Shown piece by piece: positions 3,080-29,501 of a stretch of 64,000 nt of DNA. The stretch is from a plasmid. The notes beneath the pieces are model-generated. The model was not told the origin of the DNA and ran no database searches. It was given only the letters and a program-made list of their open reading frames with translations. The DNA lies in sequence record NZ_CP118109.1. One strand, 5' to 3'. The translations under genes and the position numbers were made by a program. Positions within the stretch are counted from its first letter, which is position 1, and each line of letters opens with the position of its first letter.

Positions 3080-3427
3080 TTGTACGACAAAGTAGATTGC
3101 CCATATTGTGGCAGAAAAAACGATATGCGTGATGCTCTTACTGAAGGGCTGTCTGATGACAACACTACCGATTGGGAGTGCGAGCATTGCGGACAAGAGT
3201 TCACGGTTCATGTTGACTTTATTCCAACTTTCACTGCGTCTAAAATTATCATTGTAGAATGTGATCTCTGCAAATTTGAAACTAGCGACATTAAGAATAA
3301 GGATAATGTCTGGCCTTTCCCCGAAGCATTATTAAAACTGGGAAAGAACTTTTGCCATTCTTGTTGGCTTAAATACATGGGTAAGGAGATGGATACTAAA
3401 TATGGAACTAACAGAGACTCAACGTAA
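3080..3427 (+). CDS. Zn-ribbon protein
   Basis: TTG start 8 nt after aaaggag; CPYCG...CEHCG; track ORF 2960..3427 is over-extended upstream. Confidence 0.5.
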   Translation: MYDKVDCPYCGRKNDMRDALTEGLSDDNTTDWECEHCGQEFTVHVDFIPTFTASKIIIVECDLCKFETSDIKNKDNVWPFPEALLKLGKNFCHSCWLKYMGKEMDTKYGTNRDST

Positions 3428-3644
3428 TCAAATGAAACATGCTCTTGGGTTGAATTATCATGAACATGAAACACGGAATTATTTCTTTACTCGTGCGAAC
3501 AACGCAGACTGGAACGATCTTGTTGATAAAGGCTATGCCAATAAGCGTCCAGGTTGGGATGATGAAGATGCTTATTTCTCAGTGACTGATGAAGGGCGCA
3601 AAGCGCTCGGATTGCCTGAGAAAAGAACAGAGGATGCTCAATAA
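3402..3644 (+). CDS. hypothetical protein
   Basis: ORF with RBS ggtaaggag. Confidence 0.45.
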   Translation: MELTETQRNQMKHALGLNYHEHETRNYFFTRANNADWNDLVDKGYANKRPGWDDEDAYFSVTDEGRKALGLPEKRTEDAQ

Positions 3645-3720: not shown

Positions 3721-4215
3721 GTGGAGAACAATATACAAGGGAAATTCTATAAGGCTAAGCAATTTGCCTGCTATGATTTTTTGAACAAAATGGATGACCA
3801 AACTTTGGAAGTCATATTGCTGAAATTTATGGAGAACGAAGGTTTAGAGGTCATCACATTAGAGAATTGGAAAAAAGATGCGCGCTTAATATTCGATGTA
3901 ATTTTCCAAAGAGAAGATTATAAGAATTTAGAAATTAATTTTAAAAAAAGAGGATATGGTTCAACCGGTTTAGGTGTTTACGATAAGCAGGCCAATAAGT
4001 TTTATGACTGCACATGGACAAATCACTTTCCAACTATAATGACGATAGTTGAATCTGAATACCCTGATAAATTCCCTGCCTTGCGTGAATTTTACGCAAT
4101 GCCAAGTATTGACCAACATGAGAATTATACAAGGGAAGAAATTGAACGATTTGTTATGGAAAACTTCGAACTCATCGGACAAACAAAACAACTAGATGAT
4201 TATTTAAAGGATTGA
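3721..4215 (+). CDS. hypothetical protein
   Basis: 164 aa ORF; start uncertain (no clear RBS). Confidence 0.45.
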   Translation: MENNIQGKFYKAKQFACYDFLNKMDDQTLEVILLKFMENEGLEVITLENWKKDARLIFDVIFQREDYKNLEINFKKRGYGSTGLGVYDKQANKFYDCTWTNHFPTIMTIVESEYPDKFPALREFYAMPSIDQHENYTREEIERFVMENFELIGQTKQLDDYLKD

Positions 4216-4675: not shown

Positions 4676-4711
4676 GGCCATCAGTCTCTTTCCCTGGGAG
4701 GGGAGAACACA

Positions 4712-4876
4712 TTGAAGAATTTTGACATATACGAGTATTTAGCTGACTTTGTTAGTGATGGGAAATCAAAAGACGGAGATGAAATTCTTATAAACATTGA
4801 TGGTCGGAAGATATGTGTAGTTACTCCTCAATTTAAGGAAGAAGAAATCAGTTTCAAGATTGTAAAACGGTATTAG
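4712..4876 (+). CDS. small hypothetical protein (TTG start)
   Basis: strong RBS gggaggggagaa; 54 codons; below track cutoff. Confidence 0.3.
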   Translation: MKNFDIYEYLADFVSDGKSKDGDEILINIDGRKICVVTPQFKEEEISFKIVKRY

Positions 4877-4999
4877 GGAGGGGAGAACAACAGATGATTA
4901 AAAATCAGCGAGTTGTAGTTGAGTACTTAACCAATACCGGACATGACTTTTTTAATAAAGAAACAAAGGAAAAACGAAAGTATGGTGGAAAGGTAGACT

Positions 5000-15311: not shown

Positions 15312-16652
15312 ATGACTATGACACTTGAACATGATATTGATTTAGATAAGAAGGTTGACCTGCAGCTGGCTGATGATGCGAATAAGGTAAGAAAGATAAC
15401 AATTAAGACTGCTGAGCTATTAAAAGCAGTGAGACGAGCTGTATCCATTGTTAACCATAATCATTCAACTCTTGTATTGCAAAATATATTCTTTGCTACT
15501 ACAGATAACGGAATTATTTTACGAGCTGTAAACGACAGCTTTTCTGTAGAAACAACAATCGATCCGGCACATTGCGTGATTGAAGATGATCCGAGATCTG
15601 TTTTGTTTCCAGCTAAGCGTCTTTTAGATATTGTCAGTAAAATGAGCGGAAAGAATACGACGATCTTTATTCGGGATAATTTCATTCGAATCAAGTCAGG
15701 TCGAGCTAATATGGATATTGGAGTCCAGGATGCAGACGAGTTCCCAAAACTGCCTCAGATCAAGAAAGGAAACACTTTCGAAATCGCTGCTGATGCATTG
15801 CTTGATATGTACACTCGTACAGTATTTGCAACCTCTAAGCTTGAAAGCATGCCTGTTTTGCAGGGCGTACTACATGACATTGAAGATCAAAGATTCCGCT
15901 GTATTGCAACGGATCGTCATCGTTTTGCGCAGGTCTATCATCCGACAACTATTGAGTGTGAGCCAATGCGTGTCAGCGTTCCTGCAATAACAATCAATGA
16001 AGTTATGAAGCATCTGAAAGAAAAGAAGGCTGATACGATCAAGGTTACAGTCAAAGACACTCGTGTAGTATACGATATGAACGATACTGTCCTTTACTCC
16101 CAGGTATTAGAAGGCACATATCCGGATACAAATCGAATCATCCCTACTGGAGCTAAGGCTACTGTGACAGTTCCTAATTCAGAGTTCCTAGGCGCAGTGA
16201 AGCGGGCAGCTATCTTTTTGGATGATTCTAATTCTTCTAAAATAACAATCATGATTGATGGCGAAAAGAACCAGATGCGCATTCAATCACTGGATAGTGA
16301 TGAAGGCACAATGTTAGAAGATATGGTAACACTAAAAGGAGAGGGCGGGTTTGCTTCATCCACGATGAATGGTCGTTATCTGCTTGAGTCCCTAAGCAGG
16401 ATTGGTGGCACTGCTCATGTTGAGATTAAGATGACATCAACAATGCCTTTTCTCTTAAGAGAAGCTAATGCTCTTGAAGGTAATGTAAATGTCGTTGTGC
16501 CTGTTAAGCATAGACTTGATAGCTCGAAATCTATCGAAAACTTTACGTCAAATTATAACGAAGAAGAAGCTGATCCTTTTGCTGGTCGTGCAGAGGAATA
16601 CGCTGAGCAGCAAGCTTCTGAGGCTACTGAAAGCCAAGAAGGAGCAGCTTAA
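15312..16652 (+). CDS. dnaN: DNA polymerase III beta subunit (sliding clamp) with acidic C-terminal tail
   Basis: ATDRHRFA (ATDGHRLA motif), RYLLESL; RBS gtggaggcg. Confidence 0.8.
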   Translation: MTMTLEHDIDLDKKVDLQLADDANKVRKITIKTAELLKAVRRAVSIVNHNHSTLVLQNIFFATTDNGIILRAVNDSFSVETTIDPAHCVIEDDPRSVLFPAKRLLDIVSKMSGKNTTIFIRDNFIRIKSGRANMDIGVQDADEFPKLPQIKKGNTFEIAADALLDMYTRTVFATSKLESMPVLQGVLHDIEDQRFRCIATDRHRFAQVYHPTTIECEPMRVSVPAITINEVMKHLKEKKADTIKVTVKDTRVVYDMNDTVLYSQVLEGTYPDTNRIIPTGAKATVTVPNSEFLGAVKRAAIFLDDSNSSKITIMIDGEKNQMRIQSLDSDEGTMLEDMVTLKGEGGFASSTMNGRYLLESLSRIGGTAHVEIKMTSTMPFLLREANALEGNVNVVVPVKHRLDSSKSIENFTSNYNEEEADPFAGRAEEYAEQQASEATESQEGAA

Positions 16653-16674: not shown

Positions 16675-16702
16675 TTGATTTTAGCTTGTAACGTGTTATA
16701 AT
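16675..16702 (+). promoter_or_regulatory. sigma-A-type promoter TTGATT-16-TATAAT
   Basis: consensus-like hexamers; palindrome motif lies just downstream. Confidence 0.5.
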
Positions 16703-16974: not shown

Positions 16975-17208
16975 ATGAACTTCGACGTTCAGCGTTCAAT
17001 ATTTGCAACAAATGCATTCGCTTCAGAATTTCCGGAACAGCATACTCAGCTCTGGAAAGAGTTTGAAGAAAAGGTTCCACAGGTAAATCGGATTGGCTAT
17101 TATGGCGCAGATAATGTGGCTTATATAGGCTGGCTCCGTAGCACGAAGAATGCACTCTTTAATTCATTTTTGCAATCCAATATTGCAACAAAGCATTTTG
17201 ATGCATGA
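16975..17208 (+). CDS. hypothetical protein
   Basis: ATG with gaaggga RBS; track start 16966 is alternative. Confidence 0.45.
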   Translation: MNFDVQRSIFATNAFASEFPEQHTQLWKEFEEKVPQVNRIGYYGADNVAYIGWLRSTKNALFNSFLQSNIATKHFDA

Positions 17209-18790
17209 TATAAGAATGTGGTGGCGGAAGAGAGACGCTTAGGTCTAAGGCAGATACGACTCGGTGAGCCCCGGCGCAATTCTCAGAGAGGCGGACTAGA
17301 AACCGCGCTGTAGAAACGTAGAGCCGGATTAGGGCCGTGGGAACCTGTAAGGGGAAGTCAGTTAGGCTGCTACCCGTGATGATGAAATGCTGCTATGCAA
17401 GGGAGAATGGCCCTTGCCCACATTCTTGCTCTCATTCAGCGCACAAGAGTACTGTCCCCCCGGTCTTGAGGACAGCGGCTTGCAACTGAAACCGGTAAAG
17501 GAGCCGACCTTGTGCGTTGAATGAGGGTCTTTTATTCACCCTTTTTTTCCCCTCATCTAAGAACTATAAAGGGTAGGTTATCTGATTTAGCCGTAGGAAG
17601 TCTGGAGTTATTCGTTAGTAGGTTTGTAGGCGCTGCAGAGCCGATCACTGAGGACGGTAGCCTGGATGGACTATTCAAAAATCAGACGACAGTATGCAAA
17701 AACTGACGTTACACAACAGCCAGGACCGAACCTGCAAAAAAGGCGATGAAGAGAGGCAAAAGATGGGCCCTCCGCGACAACCTAGGGGTGTGATGAGGGT
17801 TGTCATGATCATACTGGATGTGAGTCTGCCATGATAGCTTAATTGGGAAAGCGCATGACTGAGAATCATGAGATGCGGTTCAATTCCGATGTGGTGGCAT
17901 TCTAGTATGATTCACTTATGTAGGCGCACTGATGATCTTGTCCGGTTCCGCAAGCCACGCTGATGCGGGTAGACTGGTCTTGTATCGAATCTGAGAGAGT
18001 AAATAGTGGATTAGAAACGGGCGGCTTAAATGACCGGCAACGCGTGGCTTGCCGGCATCATAAGCTGGAGTGTTTCGGCTCCGTTTGCATCCCTTGCTTT
18101 GCGACAGCAGTTAGTCACACGAAACGCAGAACCCTTAGTGACTTTCAGTGCGCTACATAGATTTGTCCGGAATAGCTTAACGGTAGAGCGCTCGTATAAA
18201 CCCATACGAGAGATCAGAGGTTCGATTCCCGTTTCCGGCTTCTGCATTTAGCATACAAGTAAAGACCGTAGATCAGCCAGAGACCTCTGTATTATTTACT
18301 TGAAAAGGTGCGTTGTGTACGAAACTTTTCAAGTAAACAATATAGGCAAGTAGCGAAAGCTATTATAAGTCCAATTGTTTTCTGGTGCATGGATGCTTAA
18401 ATGGGATCAGGTGCAACAAGTGCCAATGGCAGGGTAGAAGACTCGAATCGGTTGCTTTAAGTTTCCGTTTATCGGATCGGATGGATGCTTGAACAGTAAT
18501 GTTCTTGATCGTGAAAAACACCTTTCATCCTATATGCTTAAAGACCTGCAGCTTGTATGTTAAATGGAGAAAGTTTGTGGGGCGGATTAAGTCTCAATGG
18601 ATTGGACGAGGGCGAAGCTTACTATTAATTTCAGGTAGGATCTTCAGGCATCGAGCAGTTGGGTGTCTGAAGACTATCTTTAAATCCTATATGCCGAAAG
18701 GCCAAGGCTTAATGACCCTAACGAAAACTTTCCGAGACTCACAGGTGATCTGCAGTCGGGTAAGCGGTAAAGACCGGCGTACATAATATA
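17209..18790 (+). ncRNA. about 1.6 kb ORF-free, GC-elevated, structure-rich region: candidate large non-coding RNA(s) with tRNA-like fragments
   Basis: only short both-strand overlapping ORFs without RBS; many GC hairpins; internal intrinsic terminator at 17523; tRNA-like D-arm TAGCTTAACGGTAGAGCG and GGTTCGATTCC T-loop near 18170-18245. Confidence 0.5.
17523..17551 (+). terminator. intrinsic terminator inside the non-coding region (likely 3' end of a roughly 330-nt RNA)
   Basis: gggtg-cttttattc-caccc followed by TTTTTTT, nested in atgaggg/ccctcat stem. Confidence 0.55.
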
Positions 18791-18803
18791 AAGGAGGCTT
18801 CCT

Positions 18804-19109
18804 ATGAATATCCCTGAAATTAGGCTCCGTAATGGAAAATTAGCTACATATAAATCATCCAGGCAAACGCGGATTCCTGATATGGGTATTAACGAATTAA
18901 CGGAAGTCCATAGTTTTCGTATCCCTTGCCCAGTATGTGATTACAATGAAGATAATATTGCCGTTTCACAAGACGGCATTGTCTTTCTAAATAGCCAGAT
19001 TGTCTGCCGGTTCTGTGGAGTATTTTTCCGTCCGGTAATAGATCCTGCATTCATAAAAGAGCAGCGGCTTGTCCGCTCGACTATATCCCAAAATGAAGCC
19101 GCCAAATAA
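18804..19109 (+). CDS. Zn-ribbon protein
   Basis: strong RBS aaaggaggc; CPVCD...CRFCG. Confidence 0.55.
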   Translation: MNIPEIRLRNGKLATYKSSRQTRIPDMGINELTEVHSFRIPCPVCDYNEDNIAVSQDGIVFLNSQIVCRFCGVFFRPVIDPAFIKEQRLVRSTISQNEAAK

Positions 19110-19125
19110 GCCGGCTTTTTATTAT

Positions 19126-22599: not shown

Positions 22600-22691
22600 T
22601 AAAAATGCATCAAAATACTGACAGGTATTATCATGGTGAGGGCCGCCTTTGTGCGGCTTTTCCCATGTATATCATCATATGGGGGATTCCT

Positions 22692-23738
22692 ATGTCAAAT
22701 AAGGTATATAATGACTCATTGTATAACGAGGATGTGAAATTAAAGTTCCTAGAGTTAATGAAAAAGAATGGTTGTTCTGAAAATACATTAGTTACATATA
22801 AGCGAGTTTTTCTACGCGCATCTGGATTAGAAAAAAGATTTAAGACGGATCTGTATGATTTTACATTCGAATATATAGAAAAACTCTTAATCAAGATGAA
22901 TCATACAACATTAAACTCCGCAATAAGCAGCATTAGCATCATAAGAAGTTACATTGATTGGGCGATACAGAACAAGTACAGAAAGGTGCCTTTAAGCCCA
23001 CTGGACGTATTCACTACGAAGGAATTGGCCCAGCGATACAAGAACAAACGAGTAAGAGTATATTTTACACATGCTGAAGTGCAAAAGTTTGCAGATAGCG
23101 CTGTGAATGCGCAGGATAAGGCTCTCATTTGGGCAATGTTTCATGGTATATGTGGAAATGGGATGGCAGAACTAAGGAATCTTACGTTGTATGATATTGA
23201 TCAGCATAACTATAAATTGACTCTTAAGGACGATGATTCAGAGAGAGTTATTGAACTCATCTCAGATGAACAAAAAAAATTGATCGACCACCTTCTTAAA
23301 GCCCATGAGCAAACTCATTATCTAAAGGGAAACGGAAAGTCTGTTGCTAAAAACCCTATCGGTTTCTTAGCAAAAAATAACCATGTATTTAGGCCTATGA
23401 TTCGTGGAGACAGTTCTACTGCTTCTTATCATGTTTTAAGAAATAGACTTGTAGATATATCAAAAATCAACGAAGAGCCGCAACTAACTTCCCCTATTTC
23501 GTTAAGATATAGTGGGATGCTTTATATGGCTTATTGTGAATATCAAAAGCATGGGGCGTTGAGTCTTGAGTCCATAAAGAGAATTTCAGATTTCTATGCT
23601 ATCAGTAAAGTAACTGATTCCAAATATGACAACTTCTTTATTCGAAGAGAATTTTTAACCGAAGAAACGATCATAAAGGAATATCTCTCTGGAGACGAAG
23701 GAGAAGAAGACTATGGAGTTGATGCAAAGATATTTTGA
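22692..23738 (+). CDS. tyrosine-recombinase/integrase-like protein (tentative)
   Basis: N-terminal SAM-like segment TLNSAISSISIIRSYIDWAI; C-terminal SYHVLRNRLV (HxLR-like) and downstream Tyr; motifs weak. Confidence 0.4.
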   Translation: MSNKVYNDSLYNEDVKLKFLELMKKNGCSENTLVTYKRVFLRASGLEKRFKTDLYDFTFEYIEKLLIKMNHTTLNSAISSISIIRSYIDWAIQNKYRKVPLSPLDVFTTKELAQRYKNKRVRVYFTHAEVQKFADSAVNAQDKALIWAMFHGICGNGMAELRNLTLYDIDQHNYKLTLKDDDSERVIELISDEQKKLIDHLLKAHEQTHYLKGNGKSVAKNPIGFLAKNNHVFRPMIRGDSSTASYHVLRNRLVDISKINEEPQLTSPISLRYSGMLYMAYCEYQKHGALSLESIKRISDFYAISKVTDSKYDNFFIRREFLTEETIIKEYLSGDEGEEDYGVDAKIF

Positions 23739-25048: not shown

Positions 25049-26092
25049 TTAACGAAGCAATTGAAGAACTGCTTGTGGTTGTTGGTTTGCTTGAGCCAAC
25101 ATTGCTTGAGCTGCTTGGGAAAGAATCGAGTTCTTAGTTTGCTCAACCATTTCTTTCGCCATGTCAACGTCACGAATACGGGATTCAGATGCTGTCAGGT
25201 TCTCTGCTGTTGTACCCAGGTTATTTACTGTGTGCTCCAAACGGTTTTGTACGGAACCCAATTTAGAACGCTCAGCAGATACGCTCTCGATCGCTGCGTT
25301 AATTGTAGTGATTGCTGTATCAGCGTCTTCTTGGTTAGAAATGTTGATACCAGCGTTTACTTTTGCTTCATCAGCATATGCTTCGTCAACTTTGACAACC
25401 ATTTTGTCGCCATCGTAGTAACCAGCTACAACAACATCATCTTCGGTTGCCTTTCTAGTTGTACCATTACCACTGCCATCGTCAATGTCGTCTCCGACAT
25501 TAACTGCTTCTTTAAAAGTAAGTGTAGTTGTTCCGGCAGTCAAAGTTGCAGTAGTGCCATCGTTATCAGATGTGTACTCTGTGCTTACTTTCAGCGCTTC
25601 AGCGCCCATGTCACTAATTGAAAGACTAATGCTTTGACCTGCATTTGCTCCGATTTGGAATGTAACATTTTCAGCAGAACCATTGATCAGCTTTTTCGTA
25701 TTGAACTCAGTGTCTGTAGAGATACGAGTCAATTCTTCAGCTAATTGGTTTACTTCTTTTTGAAGCTCTGCGCGGTCGGAATCCGTGTTTGTGTCAGATG
25801 CTGATTGAACTGCCAGCTCACGCATACGTTGCAGGATAGAATGAGATTCATTCAATGCACCTTCAGCTGTCTGGATCAGTGAGATACCATCTTGAGCGTT
25901 ACGAGAAGCTTGCTCAAGACCGCGGATTTGTCCACGCATTTTTTCGGAGATTGCAAGACCCGCTGCGTCATCACCAGCACGGTTGATGCGAAGACCGGAA
26001 GACAATTTCTCCATGTTTTTTCCTTGTGCAGAGTTAGCTGCGCCCAGGCTGCGTTGAGTGTTAATCGCCGCAATGTTGTGATTGATAATCAT
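25049..26092 (-). CDS. hag: flagellin
   Basis: N-terminal [17 protein letters not shown]...[30 protein letters not shown] and C-terminal flagellin helices; RBS GGAGG. Confidence 0.9.
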
Positions 26093-28475: not shown

Positions 28476-28510
28476 AAAAGCAGAAGGATGTCTCCCTCTG
28501 CTCTCTTTTT
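28476..28510. terminator. bidirectional terminator
   Basis: aaaaaaa-gcagaagg-atgtct-ccctctgc-tctcttttt. Confidence 0.5.
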
Positions 28511-29501
28511 ACAAAAATTTTTCTGCTGTAGTAACACAAATAATTGCATCATTATTGTTGGTCAAATCTCTAAAGATGTTAAGAATTTGCTTCGAATGAT
28601 AATTATCAATCCATTCTGCAGCGAATGGCGCAGGCGCAAGCACCACCAGTTTGTTATCTTCGAAGAACCCAAAAGTCTCTTTAAACCATGTGCCAAATGT
28701 AACGGCGCTTATAGATCGTTTCAAGATATCTTCGATCTCACTCCATAAGTGAATGTCTTGAGGTGTTCGATTCAGGAACAGCTCTTCACGTTTTTTGTTG
28801 ATCCTTACTTCCAACGGAGCGGTGACTTCAATTGATCCAGGTGTTCTAGCTCTCCCCTTCTCATGCAGCTTCTTAATCTCGTCTTCATGATCATTATTCT
28901 CTGGGAGCATAACCTCGTTAGACTCAAAAAGTTTTTCCATAAAGCGATTATGTTGAAGGAGTAGCCACTCAGGCAGCTGCTTCAGCTCTGCCTCACTTAA
29001 GAAAGGAACGGTCTGTCTTACTTTCACTCGAGTGCTATCATTCATTCCCTTTTTCTTTTTACTCTCTGCCCAGAACCGCATAACAAAACCGTAGTCTTCA
29101 AGTTTACTTAGGTATTTAATCAGTGTAACACGACTGATCCCCATCATTTCTGCCATGTGTTCTTGTGACATATGAGGGATTGATTCGTTGAATGAAAGGC
29201 TCAGATAATTTATGTAGGTCATGGTAGCTTCTGGCCCAAGAAAGTATTGCCAAAATTTAATCAGATAATTGTGAACGGTGGTTTTGTTGCCTGGTGTGTA
29301 AGGCAGTGAAAGACCCAAGTTCTCGAGCGAATAACTAGTGACATCTTTTTCAGTGTAATAGATCTTCCTCGTCTCCTCGACCATTTCCTCAATGCTCTCC
29401 CCGTTAACTTTTCTTTTTCGCGGCACCTTATTTCCCGTCTTTTCATAGCGGAAATAATGTATGTCATTCGTGCTGTCGCCCATCTTCAAAGACCTCCTCA
29501 A
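28509..29501 (-). CDS. replication-initiator/organizer-like protein with central HTH
   Basis: MAEMMGISRVTLIKYLSKLEDYGFV helix-turn-helix; adjacent to DnaA-box origin. Confidence 0.5.
   Translation of the reverse strand: MRRSLKMGDSTNDIHYFRYEKTGNKVPRKRKVNGESIEEMVEETRKIYYTEKDVTSYSLENLGLSLPYTPGNKTTVHNYLIKFWQYFLGPEATMTYINYLSLSFNESIPHMSQEHMAEMMGISRVTLIKYLSKLEDYGFVMRFWAESKKKKGMNDSTRVKVRQTVPFLSEAELKQLPEWLLLQHNRFMEKLFESNEVMLPENNDHEDEIKKLHEKGRARTPGSIEVTAPLEVRINKKREELFLNRTPQDIHLWSEIEDILKRSISAVTFGTWFKETFGFFEDNKLVVLAPAPFAAEWIDNYHSKQILNIFRDLTNNNDAIICVTTAEKFL

Follow-up and report, generated by a model that had tools for sequence, protein, structure and literature searches.

An array of tRNA-like units and undescribed structured RNA modules next to dnaN on a phage-like replicon of Paenibacillus urinalis

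The replicon of Paenibacillus urinalis deposited as a plasmid under record NZ_CP118109.1 carries, within the stretch of 64,000 nt analysed here (the window), a largely non-coding block at positions 17209-18790. It lies downstream of a gene for a DnaN-like protein (15312-16652) and two small open reading frames (ORFs), and is followed on the plus strand by a gene for a small four-cysteine, zinc-ribbon-like protein (18804-19109) with its own Shine-Dalgarno sequence, AAGGAGG, at 18791. A preliminary description of the sequence had proposed one large non-coding RNA locus of about 1.6 kb. The non-coding and structure-rich character, the phage setting and the position beside transfer RNAs (tRNAs) all held, whereas the single RNA did not: the block is a plus-strand array of six separate units, comprising a tRNA, a tRNA-like element and three or four undescribed structured RNA modules. 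In 5′ to 3′ order these are a tRNA-Leu-derived scaffold, module A with a 3′ extension, the tRNA, module B, the tRNA-like element and RNA C.

No other ORF-poor gap in the 64 kb is as large as the block. ORFs of at least 70 amino acids are absent from 17209-18025, and the longest ORF of the entire block has only 95 codons (18499-18786); no conserved reading frame was found, in line with the earlier claim that no ORF with a ribosome-binding site is visible. The G+C content, noted before as raised, amounts to 0.45-0.50 in the block compared to 0.33-0.43 in the flanks and 0.415 in the whole window. Measured against dinucleotide shuffles, folding stability gives z values of -2.4 (17205-17560), -2.8 (17912-18165) and -3.8 (18245-18785). 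The hairpins listed in the preliminary description are all present, namely gcgg-actagaaa-ccgc (17291-17306), caaggg-agaatgg-cccttg (17398-17416) and ctgtcc/ggacag (17452-17475, with a spacer of 12 nt). The decamer tcctatatgc recurs as well, at 18528 and 18685; a single repeated 10-mer in 1.6 kb is about what is expected by chance.

By protein search, the DnaN-like protein has an identical counterpart among P. urinalis plasmid proteins, encoded on a contig of 214,846 bp, and shares 88% identity with a protein of Paenibacillus sp. TCA20 (206-kb contig), the closest relative. Because DnaN matches contigs of about 200 kb and the window holds a phage-like gene set (Pol III-type DNA polymerase, both ribonucleotide reductase subunits, primases, DnaB-type helicase, virion structural protein and integrase), the “plasmid” of about 215 kb is a jumbo phage or phage-plasmid. 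Six informative contigs emerged from protein searches with DnaN and the small four-cysteine protein: the 213-kb metagenomic contig L001 (the same as L002 and L004), whose DnaN is 59% identical at the protein level, the 4-kb contig L005, and L047, L048, L049 and L050 with 208, 212, 214 and 197 kb, respectively. In all six, a variable, largely non-coding island is located between dnaN, followed by two to three small ORFs, and the small four-cysteine gene. These islands hold subsets of the modules, and the units occur independently of one another; the island of L049 also contains four high-scoring tRNAs for Asn, Trp, Pro and Met (58-73 bits).

Other searches extended this set little. BLASTN of the block in “distant” mode against phage and plasmid collections found nothing, and a DnaN-based locus search in viral and genome contigs revealed no relatives. 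Exact-pattern scans for RNA C motifs found nothing in metagenome and genome contigs and, in viral contigs, only one known contig. The pattern GGTGNAACAAGTGCCAATG had 42 viral matches, all in an unrelated glycine-rich coding gene, and was discarded. In a 2023 survey of structured RNAs of viruses, a candidate had to be represented by three or more IMG/VR sequences (PMC10690425). Since only one IMG/VR contig carries the RNAs described here, that survey probably does not report them.

The preliminary description had suggested that the block may be of the kind of ROOL, GOLLD or HEARO. The setting fits such a class, as this is a GC-rich, structured region of a Firmicute phage beside tRNAs, and ROOL and GOLLD are reported to adjoin phage tRNA islands, with tRNAs sometimes lying within the GOLLD linker (PMC12286853). 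In Rfam 15, however, the only two matches in the block are to tRNA (17828-17899, 44.3 bits; 18166-18240, 36.9 bits); nothing else matched at gathering thresholds or at E ≤ 10 in the 2.1-kb block or in pieces of 0.56 kb and 0.63 kb, and the homologous regions of the related contigs gave tRNA matches only. Neither the window and its sub-stretches nor the relatives matched the ROOL model (RF03087), be it at the gathering threshold or at E ≤ 10. At E ≤ 10 there was likewise no match to the GOLLD model (RF01998) with its conserved 3′ domain, or to the models of group I introns, group II introns and RNase P RNA; no interrupted gene flanks the block. For HEARO/OMEGA RNA (RF02033) there was no model match, and the neighbouring proteins are devoid of IS605-type TnpB/IscB or HNH domains. 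Neither ARAGORN nor Rfam detected a transfer-messenger RNA. Together with the independence of the units in related phages, this makes it hardly credible that a single large ornate RNA of known class makes up the block, and the likeness to ROOL and GOLLD is one of setting and style, not of membership.

RNA C (18242-18778, about 540 nt) is the largest unit and consists of two domains. Domain 1 (18242-18569, plus strand) is closed by an 18-bp helix (18242-18260 / 18551-18569). Within it lie the motif AAAGACCGU, a hairpin site of variable make-up (18287-18345), a hairpin with a GNRA loop (18350-18363) and two conserved blocks, GGGAUCAGGUGCAACAAGUGCCAAUGGCAGG and GAAUCGGUUGC. The variable site is occupied in the window by the perfect 13-bp stem already noted in the preliminary description (exact place 18295-18307 / 18325-18337), in L001 by a different hairpin and in L049 by a whole tRNA-like scaffold, and the GNRA loop changes from GAAA to GCAA among homologs. 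Homologs of domain 1 are present in L001, L005 and L049 (4860-5225). Compact versions were found in L048 (5752-5976), L049 (4615-4860), L050 (about 4680-4930) and L047 (5838-5975), and have the closing helix, an AAAGRCCGU motif and a GGCAGG...CGGYUAC motif in common with domain 1. A candidate pairing GRCCG/CGGYU (GACCG 18264-18268 with CGGUU 18449-18453) fits seven of seven family copies, including an exchange of A-U for G-C. Domain 2 (18582-18753, plus strand) occurs in the window, L001 and L005. The segments 18582-18595 and 18734-18753 pair to close a junction of several helices, among them a hairpin of 17 bp (18634-18678) and one of the sequence GCC-GAAA-GGC (18693-18702) that does not vary; helices 12, 13, 15 and 16 of the domain show three, two, three and five double changes, respectively. 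A 3′ hairpin (18755-18778, plus strand; GUCGG ... CCGGC) completes the RNA.

In the alignment of window, L001 and L005, 96% of the cells are paired over 125 predicted pairs of RNA C, and 29 pairs show double changes, compared with 11.1 ± 2.4 in shuffles (none of 500 reaching 29, an optimistic comparison, see below) and zero to four in slid controls. Nucleotide identity to L001 is about 78-80% for RNA C and about 69% for the adjoining small gene. Compensatory changes, for which a check in related phages had been proposed, are thus present. The substitution patterns of this and the other units show that selection maintains base pairing in the modules at the level of RNA, and no Rfam 15 family includes them. 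Two ideas on RNA C were dropped: a role as CsrA sponge, raised by GGA motifs and a CsrA gene in L005, since the GGA motifs are not conserved, and a group I intron resembling, by eye, that of tRNA-Leu (AGACUCGA, CCCUAACG, GACGAGGG), since the motifs are unconserved in relatives and no model matched. The phage-encoded CsrA homolog in L005 is located at 3287-3643, about 2.2 kb downstream of the RNA C homolog.

In the region of RNA C, a protein-coding explanation has some support, in that the 95-codon ORF 18499-18786 overlaps it and open frames lie over RNA C in all three homologs (94 codons at 13911-14144 of L001, 86 codons at 337-588 of L005), with translations 53% and 41% identical over parts. 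These frames show no codon-position bias and are not conserved in frame or extent: the L001 frame is shifted mid-way by indels of 4 nt and 1 nt, the L005 frame stops about 57 codons earlier, and changes are fewest, not most numerous, at third positions. A good Shine-Dalgarno sequence is lacking, and gene callers annotated nothing there in L001 or L005. The ORF was therefore rejected as not colinear; the persistence of open frames, though slightly above expectation, is probably a by-product of the conserved sequence. Indels between window and L001 have lengths of 1, 2, 4, 5 and 6, and substitutions fall on the three phases as 48/28/45 compared to 16/15/58 in the adjacent gene. A further small ORF (17600-17706) was rejected on account of in-frame stops in L048 and L049. 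That the block encodes small proteins is accordingly a notion with next to no probability, and on these sequence comparisons we regard coding as excluded.

In this clade, RNA C has the small zinc-ribbon gene as a conserved neighbour on its downstream side, and the only serious rival to a trans-acting function derives from this arrangement, namely that RNA C, perhaps with the whole array, is a cis-acting 5′ leader of the gene, of a giant riboswitch-like or protein-binding type. The small gene directly follows RNA C, or a compact version of it, in the window, L001, L005, L047 and L048. Because the 3′ hairpin 18755-18778 is not followed by a T-run, transcription would probably continue past it into the gene; nor does any T-run lie between this last hairpin and the Shine-Dalgarno sequence. 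Module A, with mutually exclusive and covarying helices, looks attenuator-like. On the other hand, no conserved pairing hides the Shine-Dalgarno sequence or the start codon (helix 19 is only 83% paired), two other genes separate the RNA C homolog from the small gene in L049, and modules A and B do not adjoin the zinc-ribbon gene at all. The distant homologs of the small protein in L051-L057 have ordinary genes and no RNA upstream. Furthermore, a length of 540 nt, two closed domains and a variable site able to hold a tRNA-like scaffold are unlike known leaders. We therefore regard the leader as unlikely, yet worth keeping in view. A confident model of the zinc-ribbon protein fold was predicted and found no informative match.

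Module A has a core of about 100 nt (17429-17527, plus strand), closed by a helix of 19 bp (17429-17447 / 17509-17527) and containing a pair of hairpins (17452-17475 and 17476-17506) with complementary loops, CCGGU (17460-17464) and ACCGG (17491-17495). These loops may pair within one molecule as a pseudoknot or between molecules in an assembly. The window is nearly identical to L001 here, while the more diverged copy at L048 3575-3680 keeps all helices with one mismatch in total and shows nine double substitutions over four helices (two in the closing helix, one and four in the hairpins, two in the loop-loop pairing, which becomes CUGGC/GCCAG). The pairs were counted by script, since MAFFT misaligned the L048 hairpins. 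In L049, the frame of module A holds a tRNA-like structure in place of the two hairpins. A pattern scan for the module gave three matches, all in coding sequence and due to chance.

The outline of module A recalls phi29 pRNA (RF00044), in that a long helix of the 5′ and the 3′ end leads to a junction and a pair of hairpins with mutually complementary loops; in phi29 these loops pair between molecules to form a ring. Yet the RF00044 model had no match over module A at E ≤ 10, module A may form an internal pseudoknot instead and has a switch-like 3′ extension, and its host replicon is a jumbo phage with other replication and packaging genes.

The 3′ extension (17521-17644, plus strand), conserved to about 17644, begins with an alternative helix between ATGAGGG (17521-17527) and CCCTCAT (17550-17556). 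CCCTCAT repeats the 5′ strand of the closing helix further downstream, and the alternative helix competes with the outer part of the closing one. The alternative pairing covaries, from GAGGG/CCCUC in the window to GGGGG/CCCCC in L048, with a matching pair in L049. A crossing helix joins ACCCTTT (17538-17544) and AAAGGGT (17568-17574), corresponding to GCCUUUCC/GGAAGAGGC in L001. Overlapping both is the hairpin that the preliminary description had taken for a canonical intrinsic terminator at 17523-17551. A hairpin with a T-run does exist (17523-17549; 6-bp stem with one G-U, 9-nt loop, seven T's in the T-run 17541-17549), although L001, L048 and L049 keep hairpins at this site without a T-run; the terminator scan did not call it, its loop exceeding 8 nt. 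The RNA of roughly 330 nt that this terminator was thought to end resolves into two adjoining modules. The hexamer CUGCAG was observed at 17633, where the module A extension nears its 3′ end, and at 18546 and 18750, close to the 3′ ends of the two RNA C domains; relatives have it in similar positions, and window-wide it is not enriched (24 sites).

Module B (17912-18161, plus strand) comprises about 250 nt, with a closing helix of 16-20 bp (17912-17931 / 18146-18161) around several internal hairpins. Its homolog in L048 (5150-5405) is 69% identical, and all 67 predicted pairs are kept in both sequences, with ten double changes compared with none in six slid controls.

The long end helices invite the view that the inverted repeats act as DNA, be it as replication origin or cruciform, recombination site or ends of miniature mobile elements. 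The block does lie among replication genes (dnaN, helicase, primase, polymerase), and an inverted repeat of 16-22 bp flanks each module, with similar repeats in A and C (CAGCGCACAAG, TAGCATACAAG). Conserved G-U pairs, however, make the fold strand-specific: in consensus folding, the plus strand reaches -105 compared to -67 kcal/mol for the minus strand in RNA C, and -72.9 compared to -57.8 kcal/mol in module B. The interior is RNA-like, with the GNRA loop changing from GAAA to GCAA, loop-loop pairing and multi-helix junctions. Neither further copies in the window nor flanking target duplications were found, and the cumulative GC skew has no turning point at the block. A DNA-level role is thus very improbable.

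Upstream of module B lies a tRNA gene with the anticodon GAG (17828-17899, plus strand), called by ARAGORN and by Rfam with a score well above the tRNA threshold (RF00005, 29 bits). A “second T-loop”, GGTTCAATTCC at 17885, had been listed earlier as an isolated feature; it is the T-loop of this tRNA. The gene has a class-I shape with a 5-bp anticodon stem and a normal 7-nt loop. It qualifies as a tRNA on these features; because its acceptor and T stems are weak and hold mismatches, a decoding role is not certain. Downstream of module B follows the tRNA-like element (18166-18240, plus strand), of which the preliminary description had said that it is not a standard tRNA. The T stem and the anticodon arm are indeed non-standard, and ARAGORN made no call, intron mode included; on the other hand, the element passes the Rfam tRNA threshold and six of seven acceptor pairs form, contrary to the statement that the acceptor stem does not pair. 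Three of five T-stem pairs form, and the anticodon arm has a 7-bp stem and a 6-nt loop. The homolog in L001 (12481-12556) is 84% identical, with two double changes in the acceptor and one in the anticodon stem. It keeps the two T-stem mismatches and the long anticodon stem, whereas the loop is not kept (AAACCC compared to CAUCCAA). Because of this combination of 7-bp anticodon stem, unconserved loop and conserved T-stem mismatches, the element is probably not a decoding tRNA and would have a structural role instead.

The first unit of the array is a tRNA-Leu-derived scaffold (17212-17427, plus strand). Its ends are joined by a 10-bp acceptor-like helix (17212-17221 / 17418-17427), followed by a D-arm of what we take, from Bacillus tRNA-Leu sequences, to be the tRNA-Leu type (GTGGCGGAAGAGAGACGC, 17221-17238), and a T-arm-like hairpin at 17398-17416; an insert of about 150 nt replaces the anticodon and variable arms. 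The same frame with wholly different helix sequences is found at L049 4901-5068, with eight double changes (six in the end helix, two in the T-arm-like hairpin) and insert motifs in common as seen by eye. Interruption of a tRNA-Leu-like frame between D-arm and T-arm is reminiscent of tRNAs with a group I intron, such as cyanobacterial tRNA-Leu. In contrast to these, a group I ribozyme would not fit into scaffold inserts of about 100-150 nt, Intron_gpI does not match, and removal of the insert restores no intact anticodon stem.

Such features might be read as decay, the block then being pseudogenes or junk of a former tRNA island without present function. Both tRNA matches are low (44 and 37 bits) with mismatched stems, the scaffold resembles a disrupted tRNA-Leu, and the segments 17209-17411 and 17645-17827 are not conserved in L001. 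Against this, modules A, B and C exceed the neighbouring genes in conservation and keep their pairing through many double substitutions, the scaffold helices covary with L049 despite their wholly different sequences, and the tRNA-like element conserves both its mismatched T stem and its long anticodon stem. We consider a decaying tRNA array very unlikely.

The relatives hold many other tRNA-like genes in which acceptor, D and T arms are normal and the anticodon region holds an extra 9 to about 120 nt (L001 13288-13369; L049 956-1083, 4110-4310, 4478-4600 and 4901-5068; L048 about 3905-4040). Four of these were called in the intron mode of ARAGORN, with sub-threshold Rfam tRNA scores, and they may be scaffolds, unusual intron-bearing tRNAs or pseudogenes. 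A hairpin GATAGCCTAGCGG(C/T)GGGTGAGGGCTATC, absent from the window, is common to the islands of L048 (3895-3925) and L050 (5190-5220); in L048, a tRNA-like acceptor and T-arm follow it.

Signals for transcription are located on both sides of the island. A promoter-like site on the plus strand (16675-16702; TTGATT-16-TATAAT with an upstream TG) lies just after dnaN and has counterparts at the same place in L001 (11355-11382) and L048 (2970-2997), and the scan gave no comparable match inside the island of the window. From here, a transcription unit is likely to start and to run across the two small ORFs into the RNA island. A terminator-like hairpin on the plus strand (19096-19120; AAGCCG ... 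CGGCTT, then a T-run), read by eye where the small gene ends, is the likely end of this unit; its counterpart in L001 (14508-14531) was called by the scan. The spacers of the tRNA and tRNA-like units around modules B and C measure 14, 2 and 4 nt.

Taken together, we favour, with moderate confidence, the interpretation that the island of this jumbo phage or phage-plasmid gives rise to one precursor with the six plus-strand units, which is cut at the tRNA and tRNA-like units and at the long terminal helices into stable trans-acting RNAs. The precursor would start at the promoter behind dnaN and end at the terminator behind the zinc-ribbon gene, and the tRNA and tRNA-like units, 2-14 nt away from modules B and C, would serve as punctuation for RNase P and RNase Z. 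The end-joining helices of 16-22 bp would define and protect the module ends or be RNase III sites; in Bacillus, RNase III matures ribosomal RNA and small cytoplasmic RNA at long end stems. The released products would be stable trans-acting phage RNAs of the kind of GOLLD, ROOL and the T4 RNAs RNAC and RNAD. Transcription, co-transcription, processing sites and stability we infer here from sequence.

Several observations weigh against this interpretation. In L048, the modules are separated by terminator-like hairpins and no tRNA flanks module B, so tRNA punctuation is not universal and co-transcription not always needed. Within the array of the window itself, the hairpin 17523-17549 would interrupt a single transcript if it acted as a terminator. 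Genes for RNase III, RNase P or RNA ligase were not found in the window, nor were RNA-processing enzymes among the neighbouring genes in Pfam and PHROG scans. As to the structures, each module rests on two to four sequences, and the RNAalifold models come from the same alignments as the pair counts, which makes the shuffle statistics optimistic. Some helices of RNA C, e.g. helix 9, are doubtful, and the GRCCG/CGGYU pairing conflicts with part of the RNAalifold model, so that the fold of RNA C is not settled in detail.

The comparison with known systems concerns mainly RNA C. Like GOLLD and ROOL, it is a large, elaborate structured RNA of a Firmicute phage or prophage beside a tRNA island, and phage genes, tRNAs and covariation place it among RNAs of this kind. 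It resembles them in having conserved and variable regions, the tRNAs in the GOLLD linker being paralleled by the tRNA-like scaffold at the variable site of domain 1 in L049, and in the many GNRA loops and loop-loop contacts. It differs in matching neither covariance model in sequence or structure, in its two closed domains with a long terminal helix each, in its tight linkage, within its clade, to a zinc-ribbon gene, and in being known from only a handful of phage contigs of about 200 kb. In T4, RNAC and RNAD lie in the tRNA cluster and mature together with the tRNAs. They are stable small phage RNAs of unknown function (species 1 and 2; PMC9697503), of about 120-140 nt and unrelated sequence, in contrast to the modules of 100-540 nt closed by long helices described here.

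Non-decoding tRNA-like elements beside RNAs, with possible RNase P and RNase Z sites as at the short spacers of this array, also recall tRNA-linked non-coding RNAs that are cut by tRNA enzymes. Examples are the tRNA-microRNA units of murine gammaherpesvirus 68 (MHV68), the mascRNA of MALAT1 and mitochondrial tRNA punctuation. Those systems are eukaryotic or organellar, whereas processing here is deduced from the layout and the modules of L048 are without flanking tRNAs. Overall, the locus represents new families of a known kind, the structured RNAs of phage tRNA islands, together with recurring remodelled tRNA frames.

A bolder idea, which we put forward tentatively and hold to be somewhat less probable than not, is that jumbo phages of the Paenibacillus group express new RNA families, including an ornate RNA of about 540 nt, by means of tRNA frames. 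Degenerate tRNAs would act as punctuation, scaffolds would carry cargos of 10 to 150 nt in place of the anticodon arm, and assembly would proceed through covarying loop-loop contacts as in ROOL and GOLLD. If true, the engineered “tRNA scaffold” method would have a counterpart in nature. To our knowledge, large structured RNAs without known function are rare. ROOL and GOLLD proved to be RNA cages; each new class of large RNA has brought new structural biology, and the locus offers three new candidate classes. tRNA genes remodelled into scaffolds and possible processing signals bear on the retention of tRNA islands in phages and on the origin of new RNAs. The host P. urinalis is cultivable, which makes expression, processing and knock-out studies as well as cryo-electron microscopy directly feasible.

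Beyond the island, the window encodes an integrase (phrog_5830; 22605-23738, plus strand) and a protein with a DnaA N-terminal domain and a helix-turn-helix domain (28509-29501, minus strand); both, along with the record being labelled a “plasmid”, suggest that the replicon lives as a phage-plasmid. Among the distant small-protein contigs, L054 and L055 (1-2830) encode an NrdD-type anaerobic ribonucleotide reductase into which an intein bearing a LAGLIDADG domain is inserted. In addition, the phage-like replicon of the window carries a full-length flagellin gene (25049-26092, minus strand), with matches to Flagellin_N (E = 6e-47) and Flagellin_C (E = 1e-29).

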